Positions 2,573-12,415 of a stretch of DNA of 12,415 nucleotides are shown piece after piece. The position numbers and the translations under genes were made by a program. The notes under the pieces are model-generated. The model was not told where the DNA came from, ran no database searches, and saw only the letters and a list, made by a program, of their open reading frames with translations. Location: the IMG/VR virus record IMGVR_UViG_2609459834_000014. One strand, 5' to 3'. Source of the DNA: a virus (taxonomy: Duplodnaviria > Heunggongvirae > Uroviricota > Caudoviricetes). The stretch's first letter is position 1; every line of letters starts with the position of its first letter.

Positions 2573-3454
2573 ATGCAGCATTCAAAAGAGAATGAAACTA
2601 TATTCTTAGGAAATCTATGGATTGACAAAAAAATACCACCATTAGAATATTGTTCATTTGAACGCGCTTCAAGACTATTAGAATGCGAGATTGATGATTT
2701 ATTACACCTATACGAAATAGGCGCCTTTAATATCGCATTCAAGGCGGATGGACTTGCAGTTAGATTTAATGTTAATTTCCTCTATAAAAATCAGAAAATG
2801 GAAATTGACTTAATTCATCCCGTATTAACTAATCAATCACTAGAGATGGAATTTTCAACAATATGGTATGACCTTAAAGATGACTCCTTTGAACATTTTG
2901 AAAATGGGCTTCAAATTATAGGATTTGCCTGTGGTATTTGGTACGCCGATGATATGATAAGTGACATAAAAAATGGATTAGCTATAGATCCAGATTATGA
3001 ATTCAGGCTTAAACCGGTAAAAATACGAGATAATGTTTTGATGGCAACGGCCTCATATGAAGGAAATAAGGTCATTGATATTCCATTTGAAGATCTTCTT
3101 ATCATGCGAAGAGATTTAGAGTTAATATGGAAATCAGTAAAAACTGGAATTCCTATGCCAAGTTTACTTACGAAAAGAATTTCATCTGAACCTAAAATCC
3201 CCAAGCGATTAAATAACACTGCTGAGCATCATGCAAAAAATAGGGAGGGGTTATTAAATGCAGCCATATATATATTAGCAAAATACCCAAGCGAATGTCG
3301 TGGTGAAAGAAAAGAGATAAGTCCTGAAAAGTGGACTAACGCCATAATTAAACATTTAGGAGAGCTACCTCCAATATTTATCACTAATGAACAAGAAATC
3401 TTAAGAAAATTACGATTAGCGGTTAATCATGCGGGATTGAAACAAAAGGGGTAG
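2573..3454 (+). CDS. Hypothetical protein, 293 aa, AT-rich orphan cargo gene of unknown function
   Basis: ATG at 2573 preceded by AGAGGT (2562-2567) at 5-nt spacing. G+C is clearly low (about one third by eye) against the flanking integrase and alpA. I recognise no catalytic motif or family. Confidence 0.7.
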   Translation: MQHSKENETIFLGNLWIDKKIPPLEYCSFERASRLLECEIDDLLHLYEIGAFNIAFKADGLAVRFNVNFLYKNQKMEIDLIHPVLTNQSLEMEFSTIWYDLKDDSFEHFENGLQIIGFACGIWYADDMISDIKNGLAIDPDYEFRLKPVKIRDNVLMATASYEGNKVIDIPFEDLLIMRRDLELIWKSVKTGIPMPSLLTKRISSEPKIPKRLNNTAEHHAKNREGLLNAAIYILAKYPSECRGERKEISPEKWTNAIIKHLGELPPIFITNEQEILRKLRLAVNHAGLKQKG

Positions 3455-3556: not shown

Positions 3557-3772
3557 ATGACATTAAAAACTTATCCTATCACTGGACATGCCCGCCCACG
3601 AGCTACTGCTGACTTTTTGCAAATAAGTACGGTTACTCTCTGGCGCTGGGAAAAGAACAATCCTGAATTTCCCAAATCTATACGCATTTCAAAACGGGTA
3701 TCTGTTTACGATGCACAAGAAATTAGGCAGTGGGTTAAAGCTCAATCAGCAGGATTGGAGGAAGTAGTGTAA
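3557..3772 (+). CDS. alpA: AlpA-family phage transcriptional regulator (helix-turn-helix; excision/activation control)
   Basis: 71-aa ORF. The segment FLQISTVTLWRWEKNNPEFPKSIRISKRVSVYDAQEIRQWV matches the AlpA/Vis-type HTH pattern (x-T-hy-Y/W-x-W ... FPK ... V-x-W ... EI-x-W). Position right after the integrase module is typical. Confidence 0.8.
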   Translation: MTLKTYPITGHARPRATADFLQISTVTLWRWEKNNPEFPKSIRISKRVSVYDAQEIRQWVKAQSAGLEEVV

Positions 3773-3821
3773 TGACAATATTAACAAAGCTGGGGAGAAA
3801 AAAGCCTCCCCAACGTATTAA

Positions 3822-4016
3822 TCAATTCTTTGGTTCTAAACCTCGGCTTTGTAACTCTTTGCGTAGAATGCGCTTGATCCAAGCCGCTAGCGATTCATCG
3901 CCATCCTGCTGTTGTGCTTGTTCCATCAGTTCACGCAGTTCAGGGTCAAGTCGGAACTGGAATGGCGGATTCCCACGTCTTTCATTTTTGTGTGTTGACA
4001 CGTCAATTACACCCAT
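3822..4016 (-). CDS. Possible ribbon-helix-helix (CopG/Arc-like) small DNA-binding protein, 64 aa
   Basis: The translation FQFRLDPELRELMEQAQQQDGDESLAAWIKRILRKEL has the strand-helix-helix layout of RHH repressors. It is divergent from the downstream operon and next to a perfect palindrome. Weak points: no clear Shine-Dalgarno before its ATG (4014-4016 on the - strand), and it overlaps a low-complexity + strand ORF. Confidence 0.4.
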   Translation of the reverse strand: MGVIDVSTHKNERRGNPPFQFRLDPELRELMEQAQQQDGDESLAAWIKRILRKELQSRGLEPKN

Positions 4017-4049
4017 TGTAATGTATTTATGTGTAATGACACATTACAC
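3995..4049. promoter_or_regulatory. Strong rightward sigma70 promoter with an adjacent perfect palindromic operator
   Basis: TTGACA (3995-4000), 16 bp, TGTAAT (4017-4022) on the + strand. It is followed by the perfect inverted repeat GTGTAATG-ACA-CATTACAC (4031-4049); further GTAATG/CATTAC-like half-sites lie at 4003-4023. Located between the RHH-like ORF and the Icd-like-to-primase operon. Confidence 0.45.
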
Positions 4050-4132
4050 ACAGAAAAACAAAATAGCAACGCCCCGGAGTGTTTGCAGCACCACCGAGGC
4101 GTCTGACCAGCACGTTATATGAGGTAACGAAG

Positions 4133-4309
4133 ATGGCTAAACAGAAGTGTACCTGGTTATTTGCGGCGATCAACCGCAGTCAACGTAATGCCCGTCCGGT
4201 GATGTTAAGGATCACCGCAGATAACGAGCGATCAGCGCGGCGCAGACTTGCCCCGGACTATGTACTGAGCTTTGCCGGGCGCATTCCCTGCGGAGGTGAA
4301 CATGCGTAA
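4133..4309 (+). CDS. Small Icd-like (phage cell-division-inhibitor family) protein, 58 aa
   Basis: ATG at 4133 preceded by GAGG (4121-4124). The translation MAKQKCTWLFAAINRSQRNARPVMLRITADNERSARRRLAPDYVLSFAGRIPCGGEHA resembles, from memory, the short Icd-like proteins found in P4-like satellites. The ORF track extends it to an upstream GTG at 4079. Confidence 0.5.
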   Translation: MAKQKCTWLFAAINRSQRNARPVMLRITADNERSARRRLAPDYVLSFAGRIPCGGEHA

Positions 4310-4661
4310 TTATCCGCATCCCGGCGAACGCTGGCAGCATGAACGTGGCTGGACGGTCACGATTATCCGATTAATAGAAGCCTCGCCCTCTGTGGCGCTG
4401 GTTAATCCTGAATTCAGCTGTGAAGTGCTGATACGTCATGACAGCGACAACCAGCTTTCTTCCTGCCCTCTGGCATGGTTTGAACAGCGATATACGCGCC
4501 TGTTTGATGTACCGCTCTTTAAGCCTGCACCAGCTCCTGCAGGCGGTAGTGGTTCCGGCCCGCTGACACTGCATCCGTCTGTGCTATTTATCCGCTGGCG
4601 GGAGCGTAGCATATGGCGTTCTGCTGAGCCTGATGACGGTCACTATTCAAAGTTTCTCTGA
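4302..4661 (+). CDS. Hypothetical satellite protein, 119 aa
   Basis: ATG at 4302 preceded by GGAGG (4292-4296); overlaps the stop of the Icd-like ORF by 8 nt, suggesting translational coupling. High G+C like the island core. Contains a Gly/Pro/Ala-rich linker (PAPAPAGGSGSGP). Confidence 0.6.
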   Translation: MRNYPHPGERWQHERGWTVTIIRLIEASPSVALVNPEFSCEVLIRHDSDNQLSSCPLAWFEQRYTRLFDVPLFKPAPAPAGGSGSGPLTLHPSVLFIRWRERSIWRSAEPDDGHYSKFL

Positions 4662-4692
4662 CAAAACACCGCTGAAAACGGAGTAATCCACA

Positions 4693-4977
4693 ATGAATAT
4701 TTCAAACGGGCACAACGGTGCTCAGGGCCAGACTTTGCCTGAAAAACACAATACCGGTGCTTTTGCCTATGGGTTGTCAGAGGACGGTTTCGGAAAGCTG
4801 ACCCGCGCAAGAAATGCCTGCGACATGCTCCAGCTTCTCTTTTCTGAATACCCGTCTCAGGCCGGAGCACTGGACGCAGGCTGTGCGCCTGGTGTCGCCG
4901 CGCTGATGGAGTACCTGCGGGCAGATTTGACGGATATTGCGCACAGCTGTGCACTGATTGAAGGAGGTGCCAGATGA
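4693..4977 (+). CDS. Hypothetical satellite protein, 94 aa
   Basis: ATG at 4693 with GGAG at 4679-4682; same orientation and composition as its neighbours. Its size and position upstream of the primase recall P4 epsilon, but I see no sequence support for that. Confidence 0.55.
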   Translation: MNISNGHNGAQGQTLPEKHNTGAFAYGLSEDGFGKLTRARNACDMLQLLFSEYPSQAGALDAGCAPGVAALMEYLRADLTDIAHSCALIEGGAR

Positions 4978-5357
4978 ACCAGCCGCAGGTTTCCATTTTC
5001 CCGGCAGAAATGACCACCGCGCTTTACCGGCGGGCTATTGCTTCAGCATGGCGGCAGAAAATGCTGAACGAAACTGGCAATGATCAGTATGGTCCGCACA
5101 GCCTGACGGTGGAGCGTATTGAAATGGCCATTGCGCTGCATATCGAGTGCGCACTGATTAACGAGTACGGCGAAGCACAGGGCGCCGCTGCCGCGCTGGC
5201 ACTGCTAACTGACATGCTGGAGCCGTCACTGCTGACCGCGCCGCCGGTACTGACCGCGCGCGGTTGTGAAGTAATGGCGGAGATGTACCGCACGCTTCCG
5301 GCGGCCTTTGATGACTTCTGCAGTACCGGTGTGACGTTGTATCAGGGGGAAGTATGA
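4974..5357 (+). CDS. Hypothetical satellite protein, 127 aa
   Basis: ATG at 4974 preceded by GGAGGTG (4963-4969); 4-nt ATGA overlap with the preceding ORF, and its stop overlaps the primase start. Confidence 0.6.
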   Translation: MNQPQVSIFPAEMTTALYRRAIASAWRQKMLNETGNDQYGPHSLTVERIEMAIALHIECALINEYGEAQGAAAALALLTDMLEPSLLTAPPVLTARGCEVMAEMYRTLPAAFDDFCSTGVTLYQGEV

Positions 5358-8026
5358 CAATACAGACGGTTACGCAGATTTCAGCCGCCGCACGGGGGAA
5401 ATGGCCCGTTATTCTCCAGATGCTGCGTATTGATGTACCTGAAAACGGCAGGCACGGTCCCTGCCCGAAATGTGGGGGCAAGGATCGTTTTCGCCTTGAT
5501 GACCTTGACGGGCGCGGGACGTGGATCTGCAGCCAGTGTGGCAATGGTGACGGTCTGGATCTGGTTAAGCTCGTAACCGGTTACAGCGTCAGAAAGGCTG
5601 CGCAGGAGGTGGCGCAGGTGCTTAATGTGCCGGATGTGCAGGAACTGCCTGTTAAGCCTGCCAGACAAAAAGCCCCTAAACGCGACATGGGGCTTACCGT
5701 GGCGGCGCTGATGAAAGAGAGCCACACGGGAGAAAGCGCCTATCTGACAGGAAAAGGGTTCGCCGGATACCCGGCCTCTCTGACCGGAAGCGTGCAGCAT
5801 ATCAGCGGTAAGGATTTTCCTGCCGGTTCCCTGCTGTTACCACTCACGACCAACACCGGAGCCGTGACCGGTGCACAGCTTATCGCCCCGACGGGTGAAA
5901 AAAGCATACTGCCCGGCAGCACGATGAAAGGCGCGTTTGTGTCGCTCAGCCCGTTACCGTCTGAACCACCGGTACAGGTGGTGATTACCGAAGGTTACGC
6001 TACGGCGCTGACGGTAAGTCAGCTCACTGCCGGATGCGTAGTGGCTGCCATATCTGCGGGCAACCTGCCCAATGTGGCGCAGTCGCTGCGGGCACGCTGG
6101 CCTGAGGTAAAAATTATCATCGCCGGTGATAACGATTTTCAGGACGGAGGTGAGAATCCCGGCAGAGCCTTTGCTGAACGGGCGGCAAAAGCTGTTGGCG
6201 GCTGGATGACGCTGCCACCAGGAGAGATTAAGGCTGACTGGAATGACTTTCATCGGGAGCACGGTATTACCCGTGCCCGTGAAGCCTTTCGCAACGGTCT
6301 GGTACTGTGCGGGGAAGGCCGCACGCAACTGCCGCACGGGTTCCGTCTTACCCAGGAATATCTCTGGTATGAAAAGCAGGTACAGCGCAACGGTGAGACG
6401 GAGATCCAGAACGTCAAAATATGCAGCCCGCTGCGCGTGACGGCAATCACCTGCGATGCCGATGGCGGTAACTTCGGACGACTGCTGGAATGGGAAGATA
6501 CGTGGGGTGAGTGTCGCCGCTGGGCGATGCCGATGGAAATGCTGAGCGGCAGTGGTGAGGAACTGCGCCGGGTACTGCTGGTTAACGGGCTGTCTTATAT
6601 CAGCACCACCGGTGAGGCACGCGCACGCCTGATGGAATATATCTCACTGTGTAAACCGGAACGCCGCGTGACCTGCGTCAGTCGTACTGGCTGGCATGGT
6701 CAGGTTTACGTCCTGCAGGATGAGGTCAGCGGTGAAGGTGCAGAGGGTGTCATTCTCCAGACCACTTCCGTGCAGGGGCGTGATTTCCGCGTGTCGGGCA
6801 CAACAGAGGAATGGCGGGAGCATGTATCCCGCTACTGTACCGGCAACTCCCGCGTGGCATTTGCTGTCAGCCTGGCCTTTGCTGCACCACTGTTACGGCT
6901 GGTTGGTATGGACGGCGGCGGCTACCACCTCAAAGGGGAATCGACAGACGGTAAGACCACCACCATGAAAGCGGCAACCTCCGTCTGCGGCGGGCCTGAC
7001 TACTGGCAGACATGGCGGGCCACCGGCAACGCGCTGGAGGGATGCGCCAGCCGCCGCAACGATGCCGCCATGATGCTTGATGAGATCCGGGAAGTTGACG
7101 GACGCGAGGCAGGCAATATCGCCTACATGCTGGCAAACGGTCAGGGCAAGGGCCGTGCCGGTACGGACGGTGAGCTGCGTACCCGTAAGCAGTGGCGCCT
7201 GTTGTTCTTTTCAACTGGCGAGTTGTCTCTGACCGAACATGCGGCAAAGGCCGGTGAGCGTACTTTTGCCGGGATGGAAGTCAGGATGATCCAGATCCCC
7301 AGCGATTCCGGGAAGTTTGGCGTTTTTGAGGAGCTGCACGGCTTCGACAGCGGCAAGGCTCTGGCAGAGCATCTTGAATGGGCCACGTCCTGCTACTACG
7401 GTTCGCCGTTCCGGGAGTGGCTGAAAGCACTGACCGCTGATCTTAACGGACTAACGGCACAGGCAAAATCGCTGATGAAGGAATATGCTGCCGCCCTGAC
7501 TCCGAAAGATGCAGGCAATCAGGTGGGCCGGGCTGTGAACCGCTTTGCTCTGGTGGCGATGGCAGGTGAACTGGCAACCCGTCTGGGTATCACCGGCTGG
7601 CCTGAGGGTGAAGCACTGCGGGCAACCCGCGTCTGCCTGAACGCATGGCTGAAAGATCGCGGGCACACCGCCAATCAGGAAGATATCGCCGCACTGGAGC
7701 AGGTTCGCAGTTTCTTTACCGCGAATCAGTACAGCCGCTTTGCAGACTGGTATGACGAGCGCAACCGCCCCGGCAATATGGTGGGCTGGCGCAGGGTGGA
7801 GAAAGGCAGTACCGCGCAGGGCACGGAAGCTGTCACTACGTTCTATGTCATGCCGTCCGGCTGGAAAGAAATCTGCAGGGGATTTGACCCGCGCAAGGTG
7901 GCGCGTCTGTGCGCAGATCGTGGATACCTGCTGCCCTCCACTGATGGCAAACTCCAGACAACCATTCGCCCGCCAGAGATGAATCCCCGCAGGCTCTATG
8001 TCTTCAACAGCGAGGTGCCGGGTTAA
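5354..8026 (+). CDS. Primase-helicase (P4 alpha-like replication protein: zinc ribbon, TOPRIM primase, Walker-A NTPase)
   Basis: 890-aa ORF, ATG at 5354 after a GGGGGAAG tract. N-terminal Cys4 ribbon (CPKCGG...CSQCG). TOPRIM signature with a conserved Glu (VVITEGYATAL) and acidic DxD cluster (IIAGDNDFQD). Walker A GESTDGKTT further downstream. Followed immediately by an iteron array. Confidence 0.9.
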   Translation: MTIQTVTQISAAARGKWPVILQMLRIDVPENGRHGPCPKCGGKDRFRLDDLDGRGTWICSQCGNGDGLDLVKLVTGYSVRKAAQEVAQVLNVPDVQELPVKPARQKAPKRDMGLTVAALMKESHTGESAYLTGKGFAGYPASLTGSVQHISGKDFPAGSLLLPLTTNTGAVTGAQLIAPTGEKSILPGSTMKGAFVSLSPLPSEPPVQVVITEGYATALTVSQLTAGCVVAAISAGNLPNVAQSLRARWPEVKIIIAGDNDFQDGGENPGRAFAERAAKAVGGWMTLPPGEIKADWNDFHREHGITRAREAFRNGLVLCGEGRTQLPHGFRLTQEYLWYEKQVQRNGETEIQNVKICSPLRVTAITCDADGGNFGRLLEWEDTWGECRRWAMPMEMLSGSGEELRRVLLVNGLSYISTTGEARARLMEYISLCKPERRVTCVSRTGWHGQVYVLQDEVSGEGAEGVILQTTSVQGRDFRVSGTTEEWREHVSRYCTGNSRVAFAVSLAFAAPLLRLVGMDGGGYHLKGESTDGKTTTMKAATSVCGGPDYWQTWRATGNALEGCASRRNDAAMMLDEIREVDGREAGNIAYMLANGQGKGRAGTDGELRTRKQWRLLFFSTGELSLTEHAAKAGERTFAGMEVRMIQIPSDSGKFGVFEELHGFDSGKALAEHLEWATSCYYGSPFREWLKALTADLNGLTAQAKSLMKEYAAALTPKDAGNQVGRAVNRFALVAMAGELATRLGITGWPEGEALRATRVCLNAWLKDRGHTANQEDIAALEQVRSFFTANQYSRFADWYDERNRPGNMVGWRRVEKGSTAQGTEAVTTFYVMPSGWKEICRGFDPRKVARLCADRGYLLPSTDGKLQTTIRPPEMNPRRLYVFNSEVPG

Positions 8027-8053
8027 GGCTTTGCGTGAGTCTTATTTATTAAG

Positions 8054-8248
8054 GGTAACAGGTGAAACAGGTGGAACAACCGTATTTTACAGGGCTGAAC
8101 CTGTTCCACCTTCTGAAATAGTGAGGTGGAACAGATGTAACGCCAGCCAATCCGCTGTTCCACCTTGTTACCCGCGATGTTCCACCGGTGCAGTGTATAT
8201 AAATTCCTTATAAAACAAAGCTGTAACACATGTTTCACCTGTTCCACC
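8054..8248. repeat. Iteron cluster, probable satellite origin of replication
   Basis: Eight copies of the 9-mer TGTT(C/T)CACC or its complement GGTG(G/A)AACA: 8061-8069, 8070-8078, 8102-8110, 8125-8133, 8156-8164, 8178-8186, 8231-8239, 8240-8248. Related GGTAACA/TGTTACC copies at 8054-8060 and 8166-8172, and an AT-rich tract at 8192-8220. The motif is close to the TGTTCACC iterons I recall for the P4 origin. Confidence 0.7.
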
Positions 8249-8426
8249 GCATCAGGGACATAAAGCAGACTGAAACAGAGGGCATTTTTATCTGGCTGGC
8301 TTTCATAGCCACGTCTGAATAACCGCAAGCGCCCGTTGTGCCAGCCACCACACACTGAACACCGATAGTGTGCTTGTGTCAGCCACGACACAATTGACGT
8401 AACGAACCAACCCGACAGGAGAAGTC

Positions 8427-9170
8427 ATGAACAACACCGCAGTAAATAACAACCTTTCCACTTTTCCGGCTGTAACGCAGCGGGCACTGGAAACCATGAA
8501 CACAGCCAGAAACGCATGGCTTGAAGCACGTCGTCAGCAGAAAGCGGCAGCGGATAATATTGCGACAATCCGCCAGCGTCGCGCTGAAATGGAAGCCACG
8601 ACGAACACACTGAATGAGGAGTGGCGCACGCTGTTTCGTGAAAGTCAGGGCGTGGTCTCAAAGGAAATGAAAAAACTGCGCACGGAAATTGCGCTGGGAC
8701 GAGAAACGCTTGAGGATTTTGATGAGCTGCTGGCGGCTCAGGAAAGCGAAAATGCACTTTTGCCGCAGAAAGCTGCAGAATTAGCCGGAAAGTATATCCA
8801 CGCGCATAACATTCTTGTGGATATTCGCGCAAAACAAATCTGGGAGGATTTTATGCAGTCGCATGGAAAAGCGCTTATTCAGACGCTGAGCCTGCTTAAA
8901 TCCACAATGGGCCGGGAAGCCAGTGCCGTTGTGGGTGTGGTGAATTCAGTTAATGACCCGGACACAGTGCTGAAAGACTTTATTCATAAACATATCACCA
9001 GACCGGCTCTGGCTAACGATGCGATGCCTGAGCAGGACCCGGTGTTTAAACTGGCGGGAGTTGCCCCGGATTATGCGGCGCGTCTGGATTTCAGTAATCA
9101 ACTCTCTCCGGCAGCTATGCATAAAATTAAGGTTCGTCAGGAACTTGCTGAGAAGGAGAAAGCAGTATGA
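8427..9170 (+). CDS. Hypothetical satellite protein, 247 aa, helical and charge-rich
   Basis: ATG at 8427 with AGGAG (8417-8421) at 5-nt spacing. Composition rich in A/E/K/R/L suggests long helices. First gene of a three-gene co-directional unit that ends with the Ogr/Delta-like gene. Confidence 0.7.
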   Translation: MNNTAVNNNLSTFPAVTQRALETMNTARNAWLEARRQQKAAADNIATIRQRRAEMEATTNTLNEEWRTLFRESQGVVSKEMKKLRTEIALGRETLEDFDELLAAQESENALLPQKAAELAGKYIHAHNILVDIRAKQIWEDFMQSHGKALIQTLSLLKSTMGREASAVVGVVNSVNDPDTVLKDFIHKHITRPALANDAMPEQDPVFKLAGVAPDYAARLDFSNQLSPAAMHKIKVRQELAEKEKAV

Positions 9171-9996: not shown

Positions 9997-10018
9997 TTAG
10001 AAAGAACGCCCACGTAAT

Positions 10019-10043
10019 CCCGGTCCAGTACCGGGATTTTTTA
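10019..10043 (+). terminator. Rho-independent terminator after the Ogr/Delta-like gene
   Basis: Hairpin CCCGG (10019-10023), loop TCCAGTA, CCGGG (10031-10035), then ATTTTTTAT (10036-10044), 23 bp after the stop codon. Confidence 0.6.
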
Positions 10044-10423: not shown

Positions 10424-12415
10424 ATGGCCATTCAAAAAAAACAAACAAAAAATTCTGAAAGAAGTATTAAAAGCCAGTTAGAAAAACTTACGGCTGAAAA
10501 AGCCATTTCCGAATATATTTGGAATGCTTTTGATGCTGAAGCCACAAATATTAATATTACAGTTATCCCAAATGGTTTAAGTGGGATATCTTCAATAGAA
10601 ATTATTGATGATGGAACTGGCATCGATTTTAATGAAGTCGATGAAACTTTCGGGCAGTTTTTAGATTCCAAGAAGAAAGCAAAACGAACGCCTGTCACAA
10701 GAGGACATAAAGGTAAGGGGCGGTTTTCATTCTGTAAATTCGCTGATAAAGCCGAATGGACTAGCTGGCGTAATGGAGAGAAATTTACGCTAACTATAGT
10801 TTCATCACATCTAAATGAATATGAGCATTCAGATTTATCCATGTGCTCTCATAAAAATTCTGGAACTAAGGTGGTCTTTAATCCTGTAACAATTACTGAA
10901 GATTATTTTAATTCAATAGTTATACCCTATTTGCAGAACGATATATCTTGGCTGTTGGTGGCCAAACCAAAATTAAAATTAAAAATAAACGGTCAATCTA
11001 TTAGCCCAATAGGATATGCTTCAACTTCAAATAATATTGAATTTGGAGAGGTCGATTTTAATTCGAAAACAGTTATATGGTCTAGTAAACCTGTAGTAGA
11101 AAAATCATATATATATTATTTAAATAATCAAGGTGATATTGTTTACAAAGAGTTTTCTGAGATGAACAAAAAAGGATTTGATTGTTCATCCTATGTCACA
11201 TCAAGTTGGTTTGATGATTTTTCTGAATCAAACGACTTGTTTAATGAATCGAAAAACAGTGTTGACTCAGATATTTTTAAATACATTAGTCTACATGTTA
11301 AAGGTAATTTAAGGGAAGAGTATAGAAAATATAAAAATAATGCGGCAGATCAACTCATTCAAAACTATTTAAATGAGGGTGTGTTTCCAGAATATAAAGG
11401 TGAGAATAGAATGCTCAATGAATTTAAAAGGAATCAACTCATTGAAACTATAAAGATAATTTATGAGGCCGAACCTCAAATTTTCTCCACACTAAACAAG
11501 AAACAAAAAAAAATCTTAATTAAACTATTAGATAGAATTGTTGAAACCAATAATTTATCCAGTCTCTTTGACATTTTTGAAGGTATAGTTTCCCTATCCG
11601 AAGATGAGGTTGATAAACTTTCATCTGTAATAAAAAGAAGTTCACTTTCTAATATTACGAGGACTTTGTCATTTATTAATGATAGACTGGATGTTATTGA
11701 TTATTTTAAAAAAATACTATATGAGAAAAAGAAAGAATCATATGAAGTAAAGCACATTCAAAAGAGCATAGAAAATAATTTATGGCTTTTTGGAGAGCAA
11801 TACACTCTAGTTGCATCAGAAGATGATAAGTTTGATAAAGCTCTTAGAAAGTATCTGGAGAAGACTAAAGGTTTTAACGAAGCACATTATAATAAGTATA
11901 GTGTACAGCATCCAGATAAAAATAAAGAAATGGATATATTTGCAGCACAAAAAATAAAGCGTTACACTGAAAATAATGAAGAATATTTTCATTGCATTGT
12001 GATTGAATTAAAGAAACCAAGTATAAAACTCGGTGATGAAGAACTCGCACAAATAAAGTTATATAAAAATATAATATCTGCGACTGATGAATTTAAAGAC
12101 GATAATACAAAATGGGATTTTATTTTAGTGGGAAATGATATGTCTAATAGCAATATCACTGCTGCAAATTTATCATCAGATCTAGAAACGAATAAAATAC
12201 ATGGTGAGTTTGGCTTGGTTCAAAAAACAACAAATATGAAAATTTACGTCAAAACGTGGAAGCAAATTTTAAATGAGTATGATCTTAGATATAACGACCT
12301 GATCGATAAGCTTAAGTTGAAAGAGTTAGAAATTGCAGAAGATATGGGGCCTGATGAACTCACGGCAAAAATTTTAGAAAAAACGGCAAGACTTCCGACT
12401 TCGATACAGGCTTAG
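10424..12415 (+). CDS. GHKL (Bergerat-fold) ATPase-domain protein with a C-terminal PD-(D/E)xK-like signature; candidate anti-phage or accessory effector of unknown family
   Basis: 663-aa ORF, ATG at 10424 and stop at 12413-12415, which is the last codon of the window. About 30% G+C by eye. All three GHKL motifs are in order: N-box E30-x3-N34-x2-D37-A38 (EYIWNAFDA, from nt 10511), G1 box D62-D-G-T-G66 (nt 10607-10621), G2 box G94-HK-G97-K-G99 (nt 10703-10720). C-terminal D504 ... E528-L-K530 (EMDIF-x-IVIELKKP, nt 11933-12013) fits a PD-(D/E)xK core. Family and function are not recognised. Confidence 0.75.
   Translation: MAIQKKQTKNSERSIKSQLEKLTAEKAISEYIWNAFDAEATNINITVIPNGLSGISSIEIIDDGTGIDFNEVDETFGQFLDSKKKAKRTPVTRGHKGKGRFSFCKFADKAEWTSWRNGEKFTLTIVSSHLNEYEHSDLSMCSHKNSGTKVVFNPVTITEDYFNSIVIPYLQNDISWLLVAKPKLKLKINGQSISPIGYASTSNNIEFGEVDFNSKTVIWSSKPVVEKSYIYYLNNQGDIVYKEFSEMNKKGFDCSSYVTSSWFDDFSESNDLFNESKNSVDSDIFKYISLHVKGNLREEYRKYKNNAADQLIQNYLNEGVFPEYKGENRMLNEFKRNQLIETIKIIYEAEPQIFSTLNKKQKKILIKLLDRIVETNNLSSLFDIFEGIVSLSEDEVDKLSSVIKRSSLSNITRTLSFINDRLDVIDYFKKILYEKKKESYEVKHIQKSIENNLWLFGEQYTLVASEDDKFDKALRKYLEKTKGFNEAHYNKYSVQHPDKNKEMDIFAAQKIKRYTENNEEYFHCIVIELKKPSIKLGDEELAQIKLYKNIISATDEFKDDNTKWDFILVGNDMSNSNITAANLSSDLETNKIHGEFGLVQKTTNMKIYVKTWKQILNEYDLRYNDLIDKLKLKELEIAEDMGPDELTAKILEKTARLPTSIQA

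Follow-up and report, generated by a model that had tools for sequence, protein, structure and literature searches.

The window analysed here is a stretch of 12,415 nt held in IMG/VR as virus record IMGVR_UViG_2609459834_000014, and it contains a P4-like phage satellite in which a small reverse-strand gene faces the icd-like-to-primase replication operon. The interval 3789-4132, located between an alpA-like gene and that operon, is read as a self-contained immunity-type cassette, in which a ribbon-helix-helix (RHH) repressor and its operator boxes would form an Arc/Mnt-like switch on satellite replication (probability approximately 0.7). This reading is carried by a translated 59-aa gene, a predicted fold of the RHH class, conserved boxes and promoter hexamers, a leader RNA with covarying pairs, and the exchange of repressor and boxes together among related satellites. 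The features of the cassette are listed in window coordinates; P(+) and P(-) denote the rightward and leftward promoters, O1 and O2 the putative operator boxes, and L numbers individual genomic loci.

3789..3814, minus strand: intrinsic terminator of the repressor gene, scoring on the minus strand only in a terminator scan
3822..4001, minus strand: putative RHH repressor gene, read from GTG 4001 (59 aa); ATG 4016, which would give 64 aa, is available in this lineage alone
3989..4001: putative operator box O1, TGTGTGTTGACAC, over the P(+) -35 and the repressor start codon; invariant or nearly so in 39 loci, a direct repeat of O2
3995..4000, plus strand: -35 hexamer TTGACA of P(+); kept in the alignment, inside the 64-aa reading and overlapping the start codon GTG 4001-3999
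4002..4012: spacer element GTCAATTACAC, a possible third repressor site; conserved, its position matching that of box 1 of L044 (GGTAATTACC)
4019..4024, plus strand: -10 hexamer TAATGT of P(+), 18-bp spacer (17 bp with a 1-nt deletion); T4019, A4020 and T4024 invariant, 4017 variable
4030..4050: putative operator box O2, TGTGTAATGACAC (4030-4042), in a 21-bp perfect palindrome, over both predicted start sites
4041..4046, minus strand: -10 hexamer TAATGT of P(-), serving the repressor gene; ACATTA invariant
4064..4069, minus strand: -35 hexamer TTGCTA of P(-), abutting the leader hairpin; CAA 4067-4069 invariant
4069..4102, plus strand: leader hairpin 1 of the operon mRNA; compensatory changes in 11 of 13 pairs, score reached by 0/500 shuffles
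4103..4109, plus strand: single-stranded tail CTGACCA (consensus CUrACCA); near-invariant, kept in Pasteurella Pmp8 and in EcCICFT073
4113..4129, plus strand: leader hairpin 2, its loop carrying the Shine-Dalgarno sequence GAGG (4121-4124); 14 sequences show G-C to A-U covariation

The small gene, its putative operator boxes and the facing promoters

Homologues of the small protein were collected (102 in total) and 41 genomic loci compared, ranging from Escherichia, Pantoea, Serratia, Yersinia, Xenorhabdus, Providencia and Citrobacter to Gilliamella and Frischella. Relative to the window, substitutions at codon positions 1, 2 and 3 numbered 337, 116 and 978, and 863 changed codons were synonymous against 231 non-synonymous, from which it is concluded that the gene is translated and under purifying selection. 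An earlier note on this DNA, made from the letters alone, had reported a 64-aa open reading frame (ORF) here; the gene is real, but the start at ATG 4016 was rejected, as the closest relatives outside the genus have CGT in place of this codon. Homologues are mostly 59 aa with the N-terminus MSTHK, and codon 4001-3999 is GTG or ATG in every aligned locus; the conserved start is therefore GTG 4001. A sub-group of homologues starts four codons further in. The sequence GGGTG, 8 nt upstream of GTG 4001, was read as a possible ribosome-binding site. Beyond the end of the gene, the terminator at 3789-3814 is weak in the plus direction, where its tail reads GTATTAAT.

The AlphaFold model of the protein (pLDDT, the predicted local confidence, of 80.6) contains two confident helices, and fold comparison matched it to RHH repressors such as Arc, AmrZ and NikR. 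A beta-alpha-alpha domain of ~45 residues is present, as in the RHH superfamily, and the sequence features PPFQFRLDPEL...DGDES...WIKRILRKEL include the alternating strand and conserved Arg of this class. In the N-terminal strand, PPFQFRLDP, the Arg is invariant in seven repressor types, while the strand residues on either side of it change along with the box sequence. The RHH-like pattern pointed out in the note agrees with the fold comparison, but a Pfam search of the protein gave 0 families at E up to 0.1. A profile search against the PDB was empty, with no RHH chain returned. The NCBIfam model YlcI/YnfO (NF041551) matched at 20.7 bits (E 3.2e-4), under its curated cut-off of 30 bits; this name is still used by the NCBI annotation pipeline (PGAP) for the 98%-identical protein WP_164969181.1 and for the type-B and CFT073 proteins. 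Relatives are confined to 23 clusters among 1.8 billion representatives. The model thus supports placement in the RHH class at the level of fold, without support at the level of sequence family.

To determine conservation of the control region, 39 loci spanning Escherichia to Orbaceae were aligned. Invariant or nearly invariant strings are TGTGT (3989-3993), TTGACA (3995-4000), AATTACAC (4005-4012), G-TA-r-TGT (4018-4024), TGTGT (4030-4034), ATkACACATTAC (4036-4047), AAA (4061-4063) and CAA (4067-4069); positions 4013-4017 and 4048-4060 vary freely yet are fixed in length, save for one 1-nt deletion in 4013-4017. Third positions of repressor-gene codons vary freely near the boxes, and those within O1 are conserved. 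The conserved repeat unit is a direct 13-bp box, TGTGTrwTGACAC, at 3989-4001 and 4030-4042 (41 bp apart), and the motif occurs in four copies in the window against 0.87 expected. The exact O2 core was found in 38 IMG/VR contigs, with an RHH gene at a fixed distance of 30 bp in all 36 complete ones.

The ORF (3822-4016), TTGACA, TGTAAT and the palindrome GTGTAATG-ACA-CATTACAC (4031-4049) cited in the earlier note are all found where it had placed them and are non-random, as are its additional GTAATG/CATTAC half-sites (TGTAATG at 4017-4023 and 3768-3774, ATTACAC at 4006-4012). The core of the palindrome is near-invariant and its arms reach 9 bp at 4030-4050, but the outer right arm (4048-4050) is not conserved, part of the right arm is the P(-) -10, and the unit that recurs is the 13-bp direct repeat. 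Perfect inverted repeats whose arms are 9 bp or longer and whose loop is no longer than 5 turned up in 0.5% of local 200-nt shuffles, and one of the same size arose somewhere in 27% of whole-window shuffles; the palindrome alone is therefore weak evidence, and conservation is the stronger. To judge from the alignment, the perfect 21-bp palindrome is a lineage-specific feature built around O2.

For P(+), T4019, A4020 and T4024 are invariant and 4017 is not, and the functional -10 is therefore assigned to TAATGT with an 18-bp spacer. The note had paired TTGACA with TGTAAT over 16 bp; that string is present at 4017-4022 but does not have A at position 2, for which reason the promoter scan leaves it unlisted, and it was rejected on column conservation and because relatives with the 1-nt deletion would be left with a 15-bp spacer. 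TTGACA itself, described as lying upstream of the ORF start, is present but overlaps the start codon GTG 4001-3999. Of 35 distinct type-A regions, 34 carry the pattern TTGACA-N17/18-TAnnnT; types C, D and E have it too, and no type tested was without it. Transcription from P(+) would start near 4031. An mRNA with this start would begin 5' GUG UAA UGA (4031-4039), a start codon followed by two stops, and in this lineage its first 19 nt could fold into a perfect hairpin at the 5' end, which would be the palindrome in RNA form.

The 17-bp spacer of P(-) varies in sequence and never in length, and transcription would start near 4034. The P(-) pattern was present in 51 of 57 distinct regions in which the repressor start lies over the rightward -35, against 3 of 21 in which the start lies further off, a contrast expected if P(-) is the repressor's own promoter. 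A minus-strand candidate from a promoter scan, GTGTCA-16-TACAAT, was rejected since its final T is not conserved. P(+) and P(-) face each other, with predicted starts ~3 nt apart and overlapping polymerase footprints.

Leader RNA of the operon

Between P(+) and the icd-like start, ATGGCT, which follows hairpin 2, the operon is headed by a two-hairpin leader common to satellites of Enterobacterales, Orbaceae and Pasteurella regardless of repressor type. In 38 sequences, changes on both sides were seen for 14 of 18 leader pairs, 89% of cells pair (25-46% with the partner columns slid), and the observed covariation score was matched by 0/500 shuffles. The window leader folds at -31.8 kcal/mol (z = -3.5). 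A covariance model returned exactly one match per locus and, outside its training set, matched L044 (74 bits), Pmp8 (47 bits) and EcCICFT073 (42.5 bits); leader coordinates in relatives are, for example, 8762-8847 in L195 and 4874-4961 in L046.

No Rfam family matched the leader at gathering thresholds, and it is presented as a candidate new cis-regulatory RNA family. A match to the traJ 5' untranslated region (22.7 against 50 bits) was treated as chance, and otherwise only the tRNA was matched. Hairpin 1 is unlikely to be the terminator of a minus-strand antisense RNA: a U-rich tail is found in three types and not in L002, and no conserved antisense promoter was found. The resemblances of CUrACCA to a tRNA 3' end (as an RNase P substrate), a boxA or a DnaA box were only partial and were not used. 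Our best guess is that the leader controls translation initiation, or transcript processing or stability, of the first gene. Homology between immunity types breaks at ~4093-4106, inside the leader, and this break may mark the joint at which modules recombine when they are exchanged.

Exchange of repressor and boxes, and the satellite setting

In E. coli elements whose icd-primase operon is 96-100% identical, other small reverse-strand proteins and other repeats occupy the same place. A scan with the leader hairpin as bait was pooled with the earlier loci to give 157 loci; the type-A count in this set is inflated, the earlier bait having been type A. Among the 156 with a callable divergent ORF, the divergent gene encodes a small protein of repressor kind in nearly all, in seven families, and four singleton loci had spurious divergent ORFs only. 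The leader is kept while repressor and boxes change jointly, across at least seven types, and EcCICFT073 contributes another box type. The boxes read GTGCGATTCA in L002 (three copies) and ACATGGTAATTACC in L044 (two copies), and GGTGTACACC, TGTGCGCACA, GTGTGATTCAC and GTGTATATACAC in further repressor types; in each type the TTGACA promoter is unchanged, with boxes at its start site and in the interval separating -35 from -10. Similar strands go with similar boxes: PPFQMRL (E. coli L044) and PQYQMRL (Pasteurella Pmp8) are both found with GGTAWTTACC. Compared across these sequences, the joint exchange has the pattern of an immunity region, with each repressor expected to bind the boxes of its own type.

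The cassette is not restricted to one kind of operon or neighbour. It was found on P4 alpha-type primase operons (the window, Xenorhabdus and Orbaceae), on D5_N/Pox_D5 primase operons of the phage-inducible chromosomal island (PICI) type (L050), and on an operon of a 15-kb Pasteurella satellite (Pmp8). The type-A repressor also heads operons whose first gene is not icd-like, namely the primase directly (Xenorhabdus), a gene for a 351-aa protein (L050) and an unknown gene before a BREX cluster. Boxes are not tied to alpA, as type-A loci carry alpA at 64-86% identity or have no alpA. On the 102-kb plasmid p30EVA2-2 (L045, 3973-4693), the type-A repressor, boxes and leader lie beside an insertion sequence of the IS3 family and directly upstream of the unknown gene, a WYL (BrxR-like) gene and the BREX cluster. 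In two Citrobacter loci (L028 and L037, upstream of 2501), two tandem small reverse-strand genes precede the leader, and box-like repeats specific to each accompany them.

The same layout is found in the prototype Gram-negative PICI, EcCICFT073 of E. coli CFT073 (NC_004431.1; L195, 8474-9053), in which an RHH gene faces the icd-like-to-primase operon. The facing protein is a 59-aa YlcI/YnfO protein, and two GTGGGCCACACC boxes surround TTGACG-18-TATAGT, with the leader after it. A further small reverse-strand gene lies at L195 8243-8416. The locus tags C_RS30120 and C_RS30125 in this region break the numbering of the adjacent tags, and these genes may have entered the annotation later than its original release. 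In this element helper phages induce alpA, AlpA over-expression alone triggers replication, AlpA activates the downstream genes, and the global repressor of Gram-negative PICIs was called unclear (PMC6092414).

The satellite in the window is inserted at a tRNA-Arg gene (1009-1080), adjoining yfdC, and is P4-like by its int, alpA, alpha primase, sid/psu and delta genes (Pfam and NCBIfam matches). Its genes run in the order integrase, 293-aa gene, AlpA-like, icd-like, two ORFs, DUF5375, primase, Sid-like, Psu, Ogr/Delta (zinc finger) and variable region; the main genes are all on the plus strand, and the 59-aa repressor gene, separated by 130 bp from the icd-like gene, is the sole minus-strand gene of the series. 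Features flanking or overlapping the cassette are as follows.

3557..3772, plus strand: alpA-like helix-turn-helix (HTH) regulator gene, the upstream neighbour of the cassette (Pfam Phage_AlpA, 31.6 bits; PGAP: helix-turn-helix regulator)
3766..3778: box-like sequence AGTGTAATGACAA, a distal third copy lying across the stop codon of alpA, with the exact 11-mer GTGTAATGACA in common with O2
4133..8026, plus strand: proposed controlled operon of overlapping or abutting genes (icd-like, two unknown ORFs, DUF5375, P4 alpha-type primase)

The icd-like gene (4133-4309, plus strand) has an NCBIfam match of 84 bits, and the P4 alpha-type primase gene occupies 5354-8026 on the same strand. No plus-strand terminator was found by terminator scan in 4000-8600, so that icd through primase is uninterrupted. 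The distal box, 264 bp from O2, was found in the E. coli lineage only and was dropped as a conserved auxiliary operator, having no conservation outside that lineage; it might serve in looping with O2 or in blocking alpA read-through. Between int and alpA, the 293-aa ORF (2573-3454) is 44-67% identical to proteins of a few related elements and gave no Pfam, NCBIfam or PADLOC match. The gene in the Sid position (8427-9170) has a weak Psu-family Pfam match in its C-terminal half (37.8 bits) and lies just upstream of the true Psu gene (152.7 bits). At 10016-10038, AATCCCGGT-ccagt-ACCGGGATT and a following T-run form the terminator after the Ogr/Delta gene; this is the only other perfect inverted repeat in the window with 9-bp arms. 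The place of the P4-type variable (defence) hotspot is taken by a low-GC ORF (10424-12415) that exceeds 663 aa and continues past the window edge; PADLOC gave its sole match, a weak one against a model for a type II restriction enzyme (28 bits).

Working model, alternatives and known systems

In the proposed switch, the 59-aa RHH protein would be made from the modest leftward promoter P(-), and its dimers would occupy the two TGTGTrwTGACAC boxes, O1 over the -35 of the strong P(+) and O2 over both start sites. With the boxes occupied, the icd-like-to-primase operon would be silent and repressor synthesis limited. As the promoters face each other with overlapping footprints, polymerase at one would exclude the other, and through this mutual exclusion the region would be bistable in principle. 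Rightward mRNA would open with a structured leader of ~100 nt, consisting of hairpin 1, CUrACCA and a hairpin presenting the ribosome-binding site, and this leader probably adds a post-transcriptional layer. For derepression, the favoured route is helper-induced alpA transcription that would read through, antisense to the repressor gene, into the operon; it is favoured because AlpA over-expression induces EcCICFT073 and because the terminator at 3789-3814 scores only on the minus strand. A helper anti-repressor, acting instead or in addition, was graded equally possible. The decision point may thus lie upstream, with AlpA, and the cassette may be the lock that is overridden.

The earlier note had called this region the immunity or derepression switch of the icd-like-to-primase operon, at which helper-induced activation of satellite replication would be decided. 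On the sequence evidence this was largely right in kind, given the conserved gene, the RHH-like fold, the joint exchange and the uninterrupted operon, but helper control at exactly this point is at most inferred, and in view of the AlpA evidence the decision may be taken upstream. The note had missed the facing leftward promoter, the true start codon, the leader RNA, the diversity of types and the likely place of AlpA upstream of the decision.

Several observations weigh against the proposed repressor-operator switch. Since AlpA over-expression is sufficient for induction in EcCICFT073 (PMC6092414), the repressor is not the sole decision point and perhaps not the main one. The promoter scan misses both -10 hexamers, that of P(+) because only 3 of 6 positions match the consensus (P(-) likewise matches at 3 of 6), and the promoter calls rest on conservation and not on the scan. 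The linkage of gene and boxes could stem from their inheritance as a block and not from binding. No description of the 59-aa protein was found in a literature search, and a later survey, in which this zone is described as dynamic, with Bro proteins and C4/isrK RNAs, does not describe it (PMC10111431).

The strongest competing explanation places the switch after transcription, with the leader (4069-4129) acting as an immunity or attenuation RNA of the P4 CI/P1 C4 kind and the RHH protein merely fine-tuning its own level. The leader is the most widely conserved part of the region, being shared by at least seven repressor types, Pasteurella and EcCICFT073, and its covariation and fold (14/18 pairs, 0/500 shuffles, z -3.5) speak for this view; P4 CI and P1 C4 are themselves located upstream of icd-type genes. 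C4/isrK-type immunity RNAs are employed in this zone by P4 and by some Gram-negative PICIs (PMC10111431). However, Rfam searches of 3750-4400 returned neither C4 nor isrK with E relaxed to 10, loop-complementary 7-mers occurred nearby in 35 of 92 loci against ~26 expected by our own estimate, at no fixed position (chance level), and no U-run follows the hairpin on the plus strand. A perfect -35 flanked by repeated, type-specific boxes would also be left unexplained, and this explanation is considered unlikely. Less probable still is that the boxes are bound by AlpA or another HTH protein as activator and that the small protein has a different role. AlpA does activate downstream genes in EcCICFT073 (PMC6092414), and the alpA-like gene also differs among the window, L002 and L044, but type-A boxes remain near-identical with alpA at 64% identity, in loci that lack alpA and on a plasmid where an IS element has taken its place, they keep their fixed 30 bp from the RHH gene (36/36), and box similarity follows the sequence of the RHH beta-strand.

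That the conserved strings are simply the hexamers of two overlapping promoters, with no repressor and the palindrome a by-product of facing TAATGT -10s, would account for the minus-strand -10 in the right palindrome arm and for its unconserved outer bases. It fails to account for TGTGT at 3989-3993 and 4030-4034, which is invariant and outside any hexamer, or for the different repeated boxes that every other type places at the same positions with TTGACA unchanged, and little weight is given to it. Many RHH proteins are antitoxins and Icd-type proteins inhibit cell division, and VapB12 and HicB were among the fold matches; the small protein could on these grounds be an antitoxin-like neutraliser of a toxic Icd-like product, with boxes for autoregulation only. 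The repressor gene is, however, divergent from the putative toxin gene and not co-transcribed with it, as a type II toxin-antitoxin pair would be, the model has almost no C-terminal extension past helix 2, and this repressor type is also found ahead of operons that open with a gene other than an icd-like one. This explanation is judged the least credible of those considered, and the repressor-operator switch is retained as the preferred one.

A wider proposition is that the cassette represents the missing master-repressor system of Gram-negative satellites, both P4-like and PICIs, derepressed by the helper directly or through AlpA antisense transcription, with at least seven interchangeable specificities defining immunity groups and the leader as a second checkpoint. 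This is offered tentatively, as a possibility that is on balance doubtful. The cassette lies exactly between alpA and the replication operon, which makes the question of the Gram-negative satellite repressor directly testable, and its spread takes in P4-like elements, PICI-like elements with D5-type primases, a Pasteurella satellite and EcCICFT073. From the modular exchange, immunity groups are to be expected where satellites reside together, and the cassette types amount to a set of small orthogonal repressor/operator pairs.

Among satellites, P4 itself differs from the window element in gene order, the genes here being all co-oriented with int beside alpA, and its immunity is exerted by RNA (PMC10111431). 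The AlpA circuit of EcCICFT073 shares the order int, alpA, small reverse genes, icd-like and primase, whereas the published model is that of an activator only, without the reverse-strand RHH gene and boxes (PMC6092414). Like the master repressors Stl and Rpr, known from pathogenicity islands in Staphylococcus aureus (SaPIs) and from Gram-positive PICIs, the window gene is found next to the integration genes, between them and the replication module, opposite to the replication operon, and it has a proposed role in silencing the satellite; Stl proteins are much larger HTH proteins, and inactivation by helper proteins has been demonstrated for them (PMC6092414), whereas for the window gene it would be a prediction. 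With P4 CI (PMC10111431) and the P1 c4-icd-ant region the window shares a structured RNA heading an early or replication operon in an immunity context, but it has no C4/isrK match or complementary target, and has a protein repressor with DNA boxes instead.

In P1, the C4 RNA lies directly upstream of an icd-type gene. In P2 (Pe/Pc) and 186 (pR/pL), lytic-type and repressor promoters face each other and interfere mutually, with HTH repressors and starts tens of bases apart; the facing arrangement is shared by the window, in which the predicted starts are ~3 nt apart and the repressor is of the RHH class. CopG of plasmid pMV158 (PMC2724298) is an autoregulated RHH repressor acting on the promoter of a replication initiator, as is proposed for the window protein on its replication operon, but is co-transcribed with repB, whereas the window repressor is encoded on the opposite strand from a facing promoter. 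The Arc/Mnt switch differs in having no detectable sequence homology with the window protein, in using two repressors and not one, and in controlling an antirepressor and not satellite replication; a repressor start codon inside the -35 and a conserved structured leader after the promoter are particular to the window. In common are a small RHH repressor transcribed opposite a strong promoter that serves an early and potentially harmful function, operators of ~21 bp on the promoter and start region, and overlapping promoters, the repressor's own being favoured when the strong one is blocked. The mechanism is accordingly ordinary in kind, and the family is an undescribed one, at a place where the field lacks a repressor.

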